From NCBI GenBank assembly GCA_964654185.1, contig CAZZIE010000007.1, forward strand, positions 1 to 61,028: a DNA stretch of 61,028 bases, read 5' to 3'. The number at the start of each line of letters is the position of its first letter. Position 1 is the first letter of the stretch. The translations under genes were made by a program, and so were the position numbers. The stretch comes from an uncultured Spirochaetaceae bacterium. Its GTDB lineage: Bacteria > Spirochaetota > Spirochaetia > DSM-27196 > PWMO01. This document shows, one piece after another, positions 7,926 through 13,121 of the stretch. The notes below the pieces were generated by a model that was given only the letters and a program-made list of their open reading frames with translations, ran no database searches and was not told where the DNA came from.

Positions 7926-9158
7926 TCACTCCGGGGCGGCTTCCGCTTTCGAGCCTTCCGTTTCCACGCCTTCCGACTCGTGGTGCGTCACTTTGGGATC
8001 GAGCAGTGGCACCAGGAGCAGGCTGCCCAGCATAAGAGCTCCAAGGACGATGAAGCCGAGGTAGAACACTCCCAGGTCGCCGAGGACGCCCATGCCGGCG
8101 GGAAAGAGACCGGCGCCGACGGTGTTGACCGCCGGGATCATGAGGCTCACCACCAGGTTGCGACTGGTTGCCGTCCCGATCCGGGAGAGCGCCGAGAGCG
8201 CCGCGGGAAAGAAGGCGGCAACCACCGCGGGTTGCAGAAAGACCACCGCCACGAGGGGCCCCCCGTGCAACACACCGAATAGCAGGGTAAGCACGCCGCC
8301 GACGCCCACCACCGTTCCAATAAGGACCCGTTCGCCCAGGCGGTCCCGAAGCACTCCCGACACGAAGACCATGACAATGCCCGATACGCGGGACAGACCG
8401 ACCACGGTGTTCACCGTCGATTGGTCGAAGTTGCGCTCGGATGTGAGATACGTCGGCAGGATGGAGAAGACACCGAGCGCCGCCGATGCGGCCAGGATGA
8501 AGAAGGTCGCCACAGCCCAGAAGCGCCTTTGCCGAAGGAGCTCGGTCACCGTCGAGAAGCGCGGCGGTTCGCCGCGGAAGCGCCCCGCCCTGGATGTCAG
8601 TGAGAATACCACCAGCATTACCAGCACAGCGGCTCCGAGTATCGCGATCACACCGCGCCAGGATGTTACCGGCAGAAGCAGGTTGGTGAGAAAGGGCGCC
8701 GAGACGAAGGCGAGATTCGGGCCCAGGTCGTGGAAGGCGATCGCCTTGCCCCAATCCCGGGGCGAAACCATCTCGGTGAGCGTCGCTATGCCGGAGGGTG
8801 CGTACAACCCGGCTCCGGCGCCGAGGAAGAACACGCTCACCTGGATGAGTCGCAGGTTCGGACTCACTGCGGTGAGCAGAAGAGCCACGCCCGTCACGAC
8901 GGAGGCAACCTGGATGGTGGCGCGGTGATCGATGGCGCGGGCCACGAAGCCCGACAGGAGCATGGTAATGCTGTACCCCACCGCCATGATGAGGAACAGG
9001 CTCCCCGTAACCGCGTGGCCGACCCCCAGATCGGCACCGATCTCAACCAGCAGCGGGCTGAAGACAAGGCGGCCGAGGAAGTTGAGATAGATCGTCCCCG
9101 TCAGCAGGAGTACAGGGGCGGGATTGAATGGACGGAGGGTGCTCGTCGTATCGGTCAT
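7926..9158 (-). CDS. MFS transporter
   Basis: About 12 hydrophobic segments, with an MFS-like GFVARAIDHR loop. Confidence 0.85.
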   Translation of the reverse strand: MTDTTSTLRPFNPAPVLLLTGTIYLNFLGRLVFSPLLVEIGADLGVGHAVTGSLFLIMAVGYSITMLLSGFVARAIDHRATIQVASVVTGVALLLTAVSPNLRLIQVSVFFLGAGAGLYAPSGIATLTEMVSPRDWGKAIAFHDLGPNLAFVSAPFLTNLLLPVTSWRGVIAILGAAVLVMLVVFSLTSRAGRFRGEPPRFSTVTELLRQRRFWAVATFFILAASAALGVFSILPTYLTSERNFDQSTVNTVVGLSRVSGIVMVFVSGVLRDRLGERVLIGTVVGVGGVLTLLFGVLHGGPLVAVVFLQPAVVAAFFPAALSALSRIGTATSRNLVVSLMIPAVNTVGAGLFPAGMGVLGDLGVFYLGFIVLGALMLGSLLLVPLLDPKVTHHESEGVETEGSKAEAAPE

Positions 9159-9195: not shown

Positions 9196-9816
9196 TCACG
9201 GCCGCGGGCCCAGGTCCACGATCTCGTGTATGAAGGCGTAGTTGCTTCCGGCAAGGCGGCCCACCGGCTTCAGGGTCTTATGGTCAATGTGCAAACGCTC
9301 ATTGACAAGATCCTTCCGCACGGAGACGGTGACGACTTCTCCCAGCACCAGGGTGGCGCTGCCGGGACCGTTTCCGACCTGGATGCTGTCGTAGAGGGTG
9401 CACTCCAGGCGAATGGGGCTCTCCGCGAGGGACGGCGGGCGAACCCTCTGCGACGTCTCCGGCGTGAGCCCATACAGATCGAGCTCACTCTTCTCCGGCG
9501 GGTAGTCCCCCGAAGACCCGTGCATGGCAACCTCATTGGGCTCGCTCACCACATTGATGACGAACTCCCCGGTAGCGCGGATGTTCCGCAGAGTGTCCTT
9601 GGCGTTCTCCGGTCGGTCCGGGTGATAACTGAAGGAGACCGAGACGACCGCCGGGCGTGAGGAGACTCCGTTGAAGTAGCTGAAGGGTGCCAGATTGACG
9701 ACGCCCGCATCGTTCACTGAGGTGATCCACGCGATAGGCCTGGGTACAACACAACCAATCATGAGCTTATAGACCTCACGAGGCGTGAGATCATCGGGAG
9801 TCAGGTGTGTGAACAT
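9196..9816 (-). CDS. Flavin reductase family (FMN-binding) protein
   Basis: VVPRPIAWITS...NLAPFSYF, KDTLRNIRATGEFVINVV and GRLAGSNY. Confidence 0.9.
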   Translation of the reverse strand: MFTHLTPDDLTPREVYKLMIGCVVPRPIAWITSVNDAGVVNLAPFSYFNGVSSRPAVVSVSFSYHPDRPENAKDTLRNIRATGEFVINVVSEPNEVAMHGSSGDYPPEKSELDLYGLTPETSQRVRPPSLAESPIRLECTLYDSIQVGNGPGSATLVLGEVVTVSVRKDLVNERLHIDHKTLKPVGRLAGSNYAFIHEIVDLGPRP

Positions 9817-9827
9817 GTACCTGCAGC

Positions 9828-11027
9828 CTACTCCCCGTCGTCGCTTTCGGCAATAAGTCGCGTGAGGGTTTCGGTGATCCGGTCGACGAGGGCGCCGAAG
9901 TCGGGGGCATCGCTCTTCTCAATCCGGAACCCAATGGCGCCGGCGTGGCCGCCGCCGTTCTCAATGTTCATCTCATCGAGGAGTAAGCGAAGGTCCAGGG
10001 TCTTGAAGGCGCGGCTTCGCCGCGACCTGAGCTGAATGAGGTTGGAAACTCCGGGGGGGTCGAAGAAACACACCAGGCTGACGTAGCCGCTCGCCTCGGC
10101 GAGCTCGTCCGCGACGCCCCGGGCGACCGAGACGAGAGTGTCGACGTCGAATCGTTCCGTCGCCTCGGCACTCGCCTCCTCATCCAGCGCCGCAATGCCG
10201 ACGGGGCCGCGGATCTCCCGGTGCTTCATGATGAAGGCGTGGCACTTCGACTCCTTAACGGACAGCTTCTTCAGCTCGGAGTAGACCTCTTCCATGTTGG
10301 TGAAGTTGGTGTGCTTGGTCGTCTTTGCCGTAAGGAGGCGGTCGAACATGTTGCTGAACATGCGGTAGAACCGCGCCTCCTTCTTGCTCTTGATGAAGCT
10401 CCCCATCTGGGTATCGCCGACAATGCCGGTGATGATCGCAAGGACCACGTTGCGAGAAAAGACTTCCTCCACGGCGAACTCCTGAAGGAGCTCATCCCGA
10501 CCGCTGAGCTTGCAGGCCAGAAGGCCGACGAGCTCACAGGCGGAGGAGGCTTCCGCCACGAGAGCGTATTCCGGCTTCGCGTTGTAGCGGCTGTCCGATG
10601 CAACGTGATGATCGAACTCTATGTGGAGAACGTCGTCCCGGCCGACGAGCGCCTCTACCTCCGGGGAGATGTATACGAGATCCGGCTTGGCGCTGTCGCA
10701 GAAGATGATCGTGTCGATCCGGTCCTCTTCATCGCGGCACCCGGTATTCACGTTGATCGAGTTGTACCGGGCAATGTCGATGAGGTACTCGAAGTGGTCC
10801 GGAAGGTCCGGGATGGTGCAGAGGGTGACCTTCTTGTCGAGCTTGCTCAGGAGAAGGGCAACCGCGACCATGCAGGAGACGCAATCCTCGTCGGGACTCT
10901 TGTGACCGACGATCACAAAGTTCTCGCGTCGGGCAAAGGCGGTTATGATATTGTCCACGACGCGATTCTTCTGAGCGATCGTGGGGATGTCCCGCTTCCG
11001 CATTGTGCTGGCATCCGGACTGTGCAT
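9828..11027 (-). CDS. DHH/DHHA1 family phosphoesterase
   Basis: GHKSPDED, FCDS, FDHH, GIVGDT and GGGHAGAIG motifs. GGAGG RBS upstream of the ATG at 11027. Confidence 0.85.
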   Translation of the reverse strand: MHSPDASTMRKRDIPTIAQKNRVVDNIITAFARRENFVIVGHKSPDEDCVSCMVAVALLLSKLDKKVTLCTIPDLPDHFEYLIDIARYNSINVNTGCRDEEDRIDTIIFCDSAKPDLVYISPEVEALVGRDDVLHIEFDHHVASDSRYNAKPEYALVAEASSACELVGLLACKLSGRDELLQEFAVEEVFSRNVVLAIITGIVGDTQMGSFIKSKKEARFYRMFSNMFDRLLTAKTTKHTNFTNMEEVYSELKKLSVKESKCHAFIMKHREIRGPVGIAALDEEASAEATERFDVDTLVSVARGVADELAEASGYVSLVCFFDPPGVSNLIQLRSRRSRAFKTLDLRLLLDEMNIENGGGHAGAIGFRIEKSDAPDFGALVDRITETLTRLIAESDDGE

Positions 11028-11045
11028 GAACGTCCCTCCGTATGA

Positions 11046-11104
11046 GCTCAGTAGCCCCCGTGGGCTCAACAGCCCCTGTGGGCTCAACAGCCCCAGTGGG
11101 CTCA
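11046..11104. repeat. 18-bp tandem repeat (about 3.3 copies, GCTCAACAGCCCCNGTGG)
   Basis: Units at 11046, 11064 and 11082 plus a partial unit. They form GGGCT-CAAC-AGCCC hairpins. Confidence 0.85.
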
Positions 11105-12091
11105 GCCGCCGTCTTCCCCCGTCGGGGCGACTTCGGAGCGATTCCGACCGCGCTCCTTAGCAATGTACAGCGCCTGGTCGGCCTTTTCCCGCAGTTCTTC
11201 GGCATCCGCGGCGTGCATGGGATAACAGGCGATGCCCTGACTCGTCGTGACCTTGGTGATGGTCCCGCCGAACTGCTCGAGGAAGTCGAGTTGTGCGACC
11301 TCTTCCCGAAGCTTCCCGCAGATCTCGCTTGCGACGTCCGGCGTCGTGTTCGGCAGAATGAAGGTGAACTCGTCTCCGCCGTACCGCGCCAGGATGTCCG
11401 TCTCGCGAAAGTTGCGCTTGATCGCCGGGGCGACGGCGGCAATGAGCTGATCTCCGGTCTCGTGACCGTACTCGTTGTTGATTCCGGTGAAACGGTCCAG
11501 ATCCATCATGACCAGACACATCGGTTCTCCCGTCGAGACGGCGTGGGCGAACTGGTCGGTGAGGCTCTGGTCCAGGAAGCGCCGATTGAAGAGCCCGGTC
11601 AGATCGTCGGTGAAGGCGCGCTTCCGGGACTCCTCACCCCACTGGACGAGATCCGAGAGGAAGGAGCTCGTGTTCTCCAGTCGTCCCGCAATGACCCCGA
11701 GCATCTTATGCATGATCTTGATGGCAACTGTCGGCCTGCTGCTCAGGAGTGTCGAGAAGTCCTTCTCGTGGAGGCGGTACACCACGGCGTCGTCTGCGGC
11801 ACGGCATGTCGCCGAGCGCGGGGCGTGCTCGAATATGGACATCTCCCCGAAGAAGTCTCCGGGGCCGAACTCAGCGACCGTCAGGTCCTCTCCGTCCTCG
11901 GTGCTCACGCTGGTCGCCACCTTCCCATCACTCACAATGAAGAGAGAGTCGCCGGGATCTCCCTGCTGGAACAGCGCCTGTCCGTCGGTGAGATGCTCTT
12001 CCTTCAGGACCTGAGAGATCGCTTCCAGCTCGCTGGAATTGAGGTCGGCGAAGATCTCGACGCCTTCGAGAAAGGAGAGCTCACTAACCAT
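11102..12091 (-). CDS. cNMP-binding domain + GGDEF protein
   Basis: CAP_ED motif FGPGDFFGEMSIFEHAPRSAT, then DLDRFTGINNEYGHETGD, an RETD I-site, RYGGDEF and AKERGRNR. Confidence 0.9.
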   Translation of the reverse strand: MVSELSFLEGVEIFADLNSSELEAISQVLKEEHLTDGQALFQQGDPGDSLFIVSDGKVATSVSTEDGEDLTVAEFGPGDFFGEMSIFEHAPRSATCRAADDAVVYRLHEKDFSTLLSSRPTVAIKIMHKMLGVIAGRLENTSSFLSDLVQWGEESRKRAFTDDLTGLFNRRFLDQSLTDQFAHAVSTGEPMCLVMMDLDRFTGINNEYGHETGDQLIAAVAPAIKRNFRETDILARYGGDEFTFILPNTTPDVASEICGKLREEVAQLDFLEQFGGTITKVTTSQGIACYPMHAADAEELREKADQALYIAKERGRNRSEVAPTGEDGG

Positions 12092-13121
12092 TGTCGCCTC
12101 CGGACTGCGTCGACTCCTGCCGAACCTGCCCGCTTCCTTCCGCGCAGACGCGGTCGCCGCCGTCGTTGCGGGCGTGCATGAGCCGGTCGTAGGCGAGCTG
12201 GAGCAGGTCGTCGCCGTTGCTCCCGTCGGTCGGCGCGACCGCAATTCCAATGCTCGGGGTAAGCGTCACCGCCTCGCCGGTCATACCGGAAATGTCGATG
12301 GCGTGGACGCGATCCCGCAGCTCCTCGGCGATCTTCAACGCGCCCTCGCGGGCGATCCCCGGCAGCAGTGCAGCGAACTCATTGCCGCGGTAGCGGATTG
12401 CGGAGCCGTCCACATCGACCCGTTCCTGAAAGCTCCGAGCCAGGATCTTGATCGTCTTGTCGCCCACCTCGTGACCGTAGGTATCGTTTATGTCCTTGAA
12501 TCGGTCCGGCTTGAGCATGAGGACGCTCGATGCATCGGCGTCGGTGGGTGGAAAGCTCTTCATGGAGTCCTTGAGAAACGCGGTGTTGTAGAGGCCCGTG
12601 AGTTTGTCGGAGTAAACCTGACGACGCAACTCGCGAACCCAGGAGCTGTTCTCGCTGAGGAGCTTGTTCGTTGAGCGGATCCGCCCCGCCAGGAAGGCGA
12701 TCAGCTTCTGGAGAACCCGCGCAAAGACCACCGGCTCGCGGTCGAGCACGTCTTCGAACCGATCCGGCGGGGCCGGGAAGACCAGCACCCTTGTCTCCTT
12801 GCTTGCTACCGCGGTGGCGCTGCGGCCGGATCCGCGCAGTACGTCCAGCTCTCCGAAGGACTCTCCGGCAATGAAGCGTGCCACATCCCGGGAACGGGTC
12901 TCATCTTCCTTCTGGCGGATGAGAACCTCCCCCCGCTCAATGACGTAGAAGTTGCTTGCGCGGTCGTTCTCCCGAAAGACCGGCTGCTCTTCCTGAAAGG
13001 TGAGGTAGATGCTGTGTCGCTCCACCGCCGAGCGCTCTTCCGCGCTCAATTCGGCGAAGATTCCGCTTCCGGCCAGGAGATCGGAAGTTGTGCTGCGGTT
13101 CATTGTGGCTGCCACACTCAT
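12084..13121 (-). CDS. cNMP-binding domain + degenerate GGDEF (RGNEF) protein
   Basis: FIAGESFGELDVLRGSGRSATA, then KPDRFKDINDTYGHEVGD and RYRGNEF. Confidence 0.85.
   Translation of the reverse strand: MSVAATMNRSTTSDLLAGSGIFAELSAEERSAVERHSIYLTFQEEQPVFRENDRASNFYVIERGEVLIRQKEDETRSRDVARFIAGESFGELDVLRGSGRSATAVASKETRVLVFPAPPDRFEDVLDREPVVFARVLQKLIAFLAGRIRSTNKLLSENSSWVRELRRQVYSDKLTGLYNTAFLKDSMKSFPPTDADASSVLMLKPDRFKDINDTYGHEVGDKTIKILARSFQERVDVDGSAIRYRGNEFAALLPGIAREGALKIAEELRDRVHAIDISGMTGEAVTLTPSIGIAVAPTDGSNGDDLLQLAYDRLMHARNDGGDRVCAEGSGQVRQESTQSGGDNG

Follow-up and report, generated by a model that had tools for sequence, protein, structure and literature searches.

Introduction

Can a GGDEF-type cyclase be divided over two unequal proteins, each lacking catalytic elements that the other keeps? 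The question is raised by two overlapping genes, here called B and A, on a stretch of 61,028 nucleotides from an uncultured Spirochaetaceae bacterium (GenBank assembly GCA_964654185.1, contig CAZZIE010000007.1; this whole stretch is referred to as the window). Each gene encodes an N-terminal cyclic nucleoside monophosphate (cNMP)-binding domain followed by a GGDEF-type domain. To our knowledge, GGDEF enzymes are the most numerous bacterial makers of cyclic dinucleotides and are described as symmetric homodimers. An earlier note on this DNA had proposed that the two proteins carry complementary catalytic defects and form a heterodimer with one competent site. That proposal is supported here, at the level of sequence, by co-conservation, gene linkage and natural gene fusions. 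We consider it probable (roughly 70%) that the two proteins pair asymmetrically as a GGDEF heterodimer, possibly as A2B2, in which just one half-site is competent and which is gated by cNMP.

Active-site residues of the pair

Both genes are read from the minus strand, B upstream and A downstream (Table 1). The two overlapping genes described earlier are real; their 8-nucleotide (nt) overlap, ATGGTTAG, holds both the B stop and the A start and is a case of translational coupling. For B, an alternative start at M7 was given by the gene caller (P0122, 339 amino acids (aa)). The cNMP-binding domains claimed for both N-termini were matched above cutoff by Pfam in A (cNMP_binding, 1.5e-25; GGDEF, 8e-48) and in B (6.3e-15 and 2.6e-29, respectively). 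Bit scores for A and B were 162.7 and 102.5 with PF00990 (cutoff 23.8), 156.9 and 112.5 with TIGR00254 (cutoff 37.4), and 89.4 and 55.4 with PF00027 (cutoff 27.5). Over their full length, the two proteins are 29% identical.

Residues are numbered according to PleD, following verification by alignment to PDB sequences; DgcR numbers equal PleD numbers minus 153. All motif strings listed previously were found, namely MMDLDRFTGINN, RETD, GGDEF and AKERGRNR in A and LMLKPDRFKDIND, GHEVGD, RGNEF and ARNDGGDR in B. T202 of A aligns with the Lys of DIDKFKNIND, which is K332. The other correspondences in A are D197 (D327), N205 (N335), N206 (D336), D214 (D344), D305 (D435), Y309 (Y439), K312 (K442) and R316 (R446). 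In B, K204/P205 align with D327/I328, K209 with K332, D213 with D336, H217 with H340, R245-G-N247 with G368-G-E370, R318 with K442 and G322 with R446; Tyr and Met occupy the positions of D435 and Y439.

The complementary defects were thus confirmed residue by residue. A keeps the metal, GTP and GGDEF residues together with the RETD inhibitory site (I-site), and has Thr for K332 and Asn for D336. B keeps K332, N335, D336, H340 and D344, and its metal Asp, GGDEF and phosphate ligands are replaced. Each A/B pair consequently holds one set of the metal ligands D327/E370 and of GG[DE]EF, that of A, instead of two.

Conservation across homologues and controls

Full-length relatives of A and B were returned by a search of 5.8 billion proteins. 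Nearly all are labelled Spirochaetota, including Alkalispirochaeta and Salinispira pacifica. For the residue counts, 120 A-type sequences were aligned together with 121 of the B type. Position 327 is Asp in 120/120 A-type and Lys in 121/121 B-type sequences, and position 328 is Leu (119/120) and Pro (121/121), respectively. Lys332 occurs in none of the 120 A-type sequences (R48, T26, N25, G10, H7, S4) and in all 121 of the B type. The same holds for B-type Asp336 and His340 (121/121 each), positions that vary in A (E, D, N, Q and others at 336; H, Q, E, P and others at 340). Conversely, the following are fixed in A (120/120 each) and altered in B: Gly368 (Arg in 116/121), Asp at E370 (Asn in 87 and Asp in 34), Lys442 (Arg in 114/121), Arg446 (Gly in 121/121), Arg300 (Arg in only 55/121), Asp435 (H, F or Y, never Asp) and Tyr439 (mostly Phe). 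The guanine-binding residues N335 and D344 are retained in every sequence of both types (120/120 and 121/121), and E371 is invariant in A and B alike. For the RxxD I-site of A, the Arg is present in 89/120 and the Asp in 111/120.

A second set was taken from species-representative genomes, of which 437 hold a B relative with the KPDxFKxIND signature; the best 80 B loci were used. All 80 B proteins have Lys at both 327 and 332, and in 72 of them the first Gly of GGDEF is Arg. Position 332 of A in this set is R37, T13, N10, H5, G4, K3 and A2, with Lys in 3/75; among further A orthologues Lys was found in 0/~34. The orthologues of A thus do not mostly retain the lysine, the outcome that the earlier note had named as speaking against its proposal. 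Its expectation that the Lys-to-Thr change in A and the loss of Asp and GGDEF in B are conserved together held in part: non-Lys332 in A and the defects of B are conserved, and Thr itself is confined to the clade of the window. Across the family the state of A at 332 is best described as 'not Lys, usually Arg'. The residue pattern also holds over 110 genomic pairs: K332, D336 and H340 are present in every B and the metal Asp in none, whereas every A has the metal site, D435 and Y439, with Lys332 a rare exception.

Canonical GGDEF domains served as controls. The host genome is a 4.8-Mb metagenome-assembled genome (MAG), 94% complete, with ~28 GGDEF genes. K332, D336, H340, R300, D435 and Y439 are present in 22/22 of its other GG[DE]EF domains, and A is the sole intact-GGDEF domain of this genome without K332. 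In 30 unrelated GGDEF domains from other phyla, K332, D336, H340, D435 and Y439 are kept in 30/30 and Arg at position 300 in 27/30. Because both control groups, 52/52 domains combined, keep these five residues, the residue pattern of A and B, as read from the alignments, exceeds chance.

In a tree of GGDEF domains, A and B are each monophyletic (support 0.998 and 1.0, respectively). An origin of the pair by tandem duplication is no more than possible, as the GGDEF-only tree does not make A and B sisters.

Two groups of loci depart from the common pattern. In L013, L014, L015 and L034 the base pocket of A is altered, with S, G or C in place of N335 and N in place of D344, and position 332 is K or R. 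Their B-A gaps measure 68-165 nt, and a DHH gene was not found next to them; judged by its residues, the donor site of A in this subclade may take a nucleotide other than GTP. In L103, L104, L108, L109 and L110, the GGDEF motif of A reads SGDEF or AGDEF in some cases; in the B proteins paired with these, G369 is replaced by S and K442 by W. These five loci are a further diverged branch of the pair family.

Proposed cross-dimer roles of the retained residues

Teixeira, Holzschuh and Schirmer (Nat Commun 2021) modelled the Michaelis complex of DgcR (PMC8041772). In their competent dimer, K179 (K332) and metal M2 lie on the substrate of the opposing domain. Contacts across the dimer are proposed between D183 (D336) and Y286 (Y439) and between D282 (D435) and H187 (H340), and R147 (R300) may touch the Hoogsteen edge of the opposing guanine (PMC8041772). 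Whether the lysine acts in cis or in trans had been left open before; according to this published model it acts in trans.

From these contacts a cross-dimer set follows: K332, D336 and H340 of one domain face D435, Y439 and the GTP·Mg of the other, with R300 in addition. Applied to the family, the half-site that combines the GTP·Mg site of A with K332, D336 and H340 of B against D435 and Y439 of A is fully conserved, as is R300 of A. Each element of the reciprocal half-site is lost or relaxed: the metals of B, Lys332 of A, the pair D336(A)-Y439(B), the pair H340(A)-D435(B) and R300 of B. Given that K332, D336 and H340 act across the dimer in the DgcR model, exactly one half-site would be preserved. 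Since only the half-site with A as donor and B closing over it is conserved and the reciprocal one is lost or relaxed, the model argues that the catalytic partner of A would be B and not a second A.

Gene linkage, distribution and fusions

Among the best 80 B loci of the 437 species genomes, A follows B directly on the same strand in 78, and one of the two exceptions is cut by a contig end; every locus with sufficient sequence to judge has B followed by A. The junction was examined in 74 related loci, where a 4-nt overlap occurs in 21, an 8-nt overlap in 5, and the others are mostly within 26 nt. As a reverse check, 12 loci with A and no initial B match were inspected. A diverged B was found directly upstream in 11, and the 12th is cut by a contig end. 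Even sampling of 401 Spirochaetota genomes gave B in 89 (49/153 genera); for A the count is 104. Among the carriers are the named species S. pacifica and cultured organisms of one genus with complete genomes of 2.8-2.9 Mb (L102, L114). In the A proteins of this genus, position 332 is G, position 336 R and position 340 A.

One B-A locus (L029) lies in a MAG labelled Parachlamydiales; all other loci are from Spirochaetota. The label is probably a binning or labelling error, and a transfer event is possible. Nine loci have, upstream of B and in its orientation, a large open reading frame (ORF; ~570-1050 aa) that matches the GGDEF type weakly (45-91 bits); it abuts B in L035, L040, L041 and L046 and is ~1-2.3 kb away in L032, L052, L070, L072 and L074.

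B and A also occur as one chain. P0242, of 647 aa, is an uninterrupted ORF in which a cNMP and a B-type GGDEF domain are followed by a cNMP and an A-type GGDEF domain. In 19/20 fetched regions the same single ORF was found, 657-687 aa in length and with complementary residues as in the pair. The linker measures ~6-8 residues in the L088 sequence (664-aa ORF at L088:2343-4334). Single-chain B-A fusions are present in at least 20 genomes, and a library of 1.84 billion proteins, at the 50% identity level, holds two full-length B-A fusion clusters and one truncated cluster. Fusion of genes in the order in which they lie as a pair is a classic sign of physical association. The natural B-A fusions thus lend independent support, from sequence, to a physical pairing of A and B. 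Their A halves have R, E and H at 332, 336 and 340 in 17/17 tabulated cases; because of this invariance, the A side appears remodelled and not merely decayed.

A second candidate fusion, P0250 (619 aa), was rejected as a frameshift artefact because of Arg/Pro-rich out-of-frame stretches. When P0242 was aligned by MAFFT together with unfused A and B homologues, the B sequences fell on its A half, and these mixed alignments were not used. Instead, a paired alignment of 13 rows was built from P0242 and 12 loci with B and A in frame, stop codons being read as Gly. With this alignment, AlphaFold2 modelled the natural fusion with a mean predicted local distance difference test (pLDDT) score of 80.6, a predicted template modelling score of 0.45 and confident domains. 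Outside the A/B family, P0264 (947 aa) has GGDEF domains in tandem, a canonical one followed by a degenerate one (GSDAF, R at 332).

The neighbouring DHH gene

Directly downstream of A lies an ORF for a DHH/DHHA1 phosphoesterase (Table 1). Its product matches PF01368 with 43.1 bits (cutoff 28.1). Among 48 operon-linked homologues, conservation reaches at least 90% for the catalytic motifs PDxDC, D, DHH and GD, and the motifs GGGH and FRxRR are present and conserved. The Pfam DHHA1 model gave no match in the window protein; the fused homologue P0246 carries PF02272. The NCBIfam NrnA model scored 23.6 bits against a cutoff of 350 (E ~1e-5). Judged by these matches, the protein is a distant relative of NrnA and not an NrnA equivalog, and its closest relatives of solved structure are stand-alone DHH/DHHA1 phosphodiesterases such as TM1595.

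An 18-bp tandem repeat with the consensus AGCCCCAGTGGGCTCAAC comprises 2.9 copies with 94% matches and occurs nowhere else in the window. It spans the A stop codon and what is either intergenic sequence or the 5' part of the DHH ORF. As the repeat covers this region, the annotated TTG start of the DHH ORF (11087) is doubtful; translation probably begins at an ATG further on, at 11027 or 11003.

A DHH gene follows A in ~48/80 loci and is in frame with A in ~12 of them. A-DHH fusions measure 711-731 aa and form at least 17 clusters in the library of 1.84 billion proteins. The DHH gene was not found in ~20 loci with ample downstream sequence, nor in any B-A fusion examined, and for this reason it is regarded, on gene content, as a frequent, specialised accessory and not as an obligatory part or the output of the module. 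That it might be the only nanoRNase of the cell was rejected, since the genome encodes five other DHH-family proteins. NrnA-type enzymes degrade pGpG in signalling by cyclic di-GMP (c-di-GMP) (Orr et al. 2018, PMC6256023), which makes a linear dinucleotide the most likely DHH substrate. By this analogy, what the enzyme cleaves is probably a linear species of this kind, for example pGpG or pppGpG.

On the same strand, a flavin-reductase-like gene starts 11 nt past the DHH stop and is followed by a gene for a major facilitator superfamily (MFS) transporter. Both may belong to the B-A-DHH transcription unit; a scan for promoters and terminators was uninformative.

Table 1. Features of the B-A locus and its surroundings in the window (inclusive positions; minus, minus strand).
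Feature	Position	Strand	Remarks
Gene B (P0002, 345 aa)	12084..13121	minus	cNMP-binding and remodelled, metal-less GGDEF-type domain
B cNMP-binding domain, residues 41-127	12741..13001	minus	Pfam
B GGDEF-type domain, residues 170-323	12153..12614	minus	Pfam
B K204, codon	12510..12512		key residue
B P205, codon	12507..12509		key residue
B K209, codon	12495..12497		key residue
B further key residues			N212, D213, H217, D221, R243, R245-G-N-E-F, R318, G322
B/A overlap, 8 nt	12084..12091	minus	shared by B stop and A start
Gene A (P0001, 329 aa)	11102..12091	minus	cNMP-binding and GGDEF domain with complete GTP·Mg site and I-site
A cNMP-binding domain, residues 32-118	11738..11998	minus	Pfam
A GGDEF domain, residues 159-318	11138..11617	minus	Pfam
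A T202, codon	11486..11488		key residue
A further key residues			R170 (=R300), D197 (=D327), N205, D214, R229/D232 (RxxD I-site), G238-G-D-E-F, D305 (=D435), Y309 (=Y439), K312, R316
18-bp tandem repeat	11053..11104
DHH/DHHA1 phosphoesterase ORF	9828..11087	minus	directly downstream of A
Flavin-reductase-like gene	9196..9816	minus
MFS transporter gene	7926..9158	minus

Sensor domains and signalling context

In the phosphate-binding cassette of the A cNMP domain, G82, E83, R92, S93 and A94 are invariant in 120/120 homologues. The cassette of B (FGE...RSA) is intact in the window; among its homologues FGE is kept and the Arg is present in only 99/121. Because the host encodes ~12 class III cyclase domains and 9 EAL domains, signalling by cNMP and by c-di-GMP are both plausible in this organism, judged by gene content. 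Gating of the A/B pair by cyclic AMP or cyclic GMP is likewise plausible from its domain composition.

Proposed reaction

From the residue pattern we infer heterodimer formation, chemistry, ligand and product as follows. A would bind GTP and two Mg2+ via D197, D240, K312 and R316. B keeps the guanine Asn and Asp, and with its metal and phosphate ligands replaced by invariant Lys-Pro, Arg, Asn/Asp, Arg and Gly it would be devoid of a metal site. It would hold the acceptor guanine nucleotide, the 3'-OH of which would attack the alpha-phosphate of the A-bound GTP, with pyrophosphate leaving. Across the dimer, K209 of B would cover this alpha-phosphate, D213 and H217 of B would dock on Y309 and D305 of A, and R170 of A would contact the guanine bound in B. 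By our own bookkeeping, the replacements D327K, G368R and E370N would add ~4 positive charges, roughly equal to two Mg2+. The cNMP domains, strict in A and relaxed in B, would probably gate the assembly of the two GGDEF domains.

The reciprocal half-reaction would be impossible, since the metals of B are gone, the trans-acting Lys of A is absent and the interface contacts are gone or relaxed. As only one half-reaction would proceed, the first product would be 5'-pppGpG, formed in a single step if B holds GTP. c-di-GMP would arise only if pppGpG re-bound turned by 180 degrees with its triphosphate end in A, geometrically the same reaction. The conserved RxxD I-site of A suggests, at the sequence level, that c-di-GMP is at least a feedback ligand, and the DHH partner suggests that a linear species matters. 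We regard it as a tentative possibility, on the unlikely side, that A/B never cyclises. Its one catalytic centre would then be dedicated, under cNMP control, to making a linear product from guanine nucleotides, either a dinucleotide (pppGpG or pGpG) or a short oligonucleotide of greater length; this product would be a signal in its own right, hydrolysed specifically by the DHH/DHHA1 enzyme encoded next to A or joined to it.

Alternative explanations

Several points weigh against the heterodimer with one competent site. Its support is wholly computational, and the cross-dimer roles of K332, D336 and H340 derive from a modelled Michaelis complex. In a rival model, E371 is the trans-acting general base (Hallberg et al. 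2019, PMC6456294); the invariance of E371 in B is accounted for by neither published model. In the AlphaFold2 model of the fusion, domain packing is uncertain and the linker helices have pLDDT below 50. About half of the A proteins combine Arg332 with Glu336, most of them with H340, conservative replacements that might still allow an A-A homodimer. For the A332/B370 combinations, 110 pairs (L001-L116 and the window) comprised 43 non-basic/N, 36 basic/D, 31 basic/N and 0 non-basic/D. The absence of pairs with acidic B370 and non-basic A332 is suggestive of proximity of the two positions. As coevolution the association was rejected: the counts are perfect, but the charge association rests on 4 and 6 parsimony changes, too few independent events.

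Such an A-A homodimer is central to the explanation in which B is a non-catalytic pseudoenzyme that binds A and regulates it, for example by sensing GTP, pGpG or c-di-GMP, and catalysis takes place in a symmetric A-A GGDEF dimer within A2B2. A does have all cis-acting catalytic residues and the I-site, and Arg332 and Glu336 could stand in for Lys and Asp where they occur. NrnA-type enzymes form dimers, and A-DHH fusions would dimerise via DHH, joining two A chains. Degenerate GGDEF domains that sense nucleotides are also known, for example CC3396 and GdpP/YybT (cited in PMC12943098). This explanation, however, does not account for the relaxation of K332, D336 and H340 in A only (T, N, G, H, S or A), residues that all 52 canonical controls keep, nor for their invariance in a 'dead' B that has lost exactly D435 and Y439. 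In the single-chain fusions, moreover, the nearest GGDEF partner of A is B. We therefore consider it rather unlikely. Decidedly less probable is that the pair makes no dinucleotide at all and serves to sense nucleotides, thereby controlling the DHH/DHHA1 enzyme next to A or fused to it, as the degenerate GGDEF domain does in GdpP. The frequent DHH neighbour and the A-DHH clusters would fit such a role, but the metal, phosphate, base and GGDEF residues of A are 100% conserved over wide divergence, which points to catalysis, and the DHH gene is missing from the loci and B-A fusions mentioned above. That the pattern is incidental, B being a decaying duplicate of A and the Lys-to-Thr change neutral in one lineage, draws on the restriction of Thr to the clade of the window. 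It is refuted by the conservation data and extremely improbable: the replacements in B are invariant over 437 species genomes, 49/153 sampled genera and identities down to ~35%, the ORFs are intact, adjacency is tightly conserved and natural fusions exist. The heterodimer with A as donor and B as acceptor domain remains the reading that we prefer.

Relation to known systems

With canonical GGDEF diguanylate cyclases (PleD, DgcR, WspR) the pair shares the PF00990 fold, the GTP·Mg site, GGDEF and RxxD I-site of A, an N-terminal sensor with a helical linker before the GGDEF domain, and the need for two facing GGDEF domains. Canonical enzymes are symmetric and form both phosphodiester bonds with two equivalent half-sites, whereas A and B are two polypeptides, or two halves of one chain, each without what the other keeps, and would carry out one half-reaction. 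K332, D336 and H340 are invariant in the canonical enzymes and not conserved in A.

Heterodimers of class III cyclases (mammalian adenylyl cyclase C1/C2, soluble guanylyl cyclase alpha/beta) have one competent site and a second, degenerate pocket. Like A/B, they are pseudo-symmetric homologous pairs with complementary residues, made as two chains or as one fused chain. They belong to a different family, although both are palm-like, and self-cyclise one substrate; A/B would join two nucleotides, and its degenerate pocket would hold the acceptor substrate instead of a regulator. Cas10, the cyclic oligoadenylate synthase of type III CRISPR systems, likewise combines a GGDEF-like palm (GGDD) with a degenerate one (Palm1/Palm2) in non-equivalent donor and acceptor sites. 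Real sequence membership is lacking, as the Cas10-Cmr2_palm2 Pfam match on A is weak (E 0.002, below cutoff). Unlike A/B, which has a guanine-type base pocket and a cNMP sensor, Cas10 polymerises ATP to 3- to 6-mers and is activated by target RNA.

GdpP/YybT resembles the module in linking GGDEF to DHH/DHHA1, and A-DHH fusions read sensor-GGDEF-DHH-DHHA1. GdpP, however, is a membrane-anchored c-di-AMP phosphodiesterase with a degenerate GGDEF domain. In the A-DHH fusions, the GGDEF domain of A appears catalytically complete and a separate degenerate B is always present. The architecture of GdpP/YybT (transmembrane region, PAS, degenerate GGDEF and DHH/DHHA1 in one chain) is not found in the window, where the proteins are separate, of soluble type and equipped with cNMP domains. 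The DHH protein is closest to stand-alone dinucleotidases of the NrnA/TM1595 type, unlike GdpP. In precomputed domain lists, PF24898 (GGDEF_GdpP) is flagged in a few homologues, and for the P0242 fusion it is faint.

Two further examples, the Hypr GGDEF protein GacA and the PadC dimer with its asymmetry, illustrate how residues reaching across the dimer shape GGDEF catalysis and that such dimers can act asymmetrically. The linear intermediate pppGpG is mentioned in the papers on GacA (PMC6456294) and PadC (PMC6005682). Both are homodimers that break symmetry transiently; in A/B, the asymmetry is built into two genes. Full-text searches of the open-access literature turned up neither a heteromeric or tandem asymmetric GGDEF cyclase nor this spirochaete pair.

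Significance

The residue pattern, its conservation, the gene linkage and the fusions are established here. If the proposal is true, a hard-wired heterodimer with one catalytic centre would be a natural dissection of the reaction, with the donor site apart from the acceptor site. Evolution would thereby supply evidence for the cross-dimer action of K332, D336 and H340, a role that hitherto came from modelling. It would then be directly testable whether both phosphodiester bonds arise sequentially at one centre or whether pppGpG is released, and structural work could start from the natural B-A fusions, in which the heterodimer is already tethered. Found in about a quarter of the sampled genomes, the module is common among Spirochaetota; it connects the sensing of cNMP with chemistry of the c-di-GMP type and with a DHH/DHHA1 nuclease. 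Should the linear product be the true one, GGDEF parts would have given rise to a new second-messenger pair.

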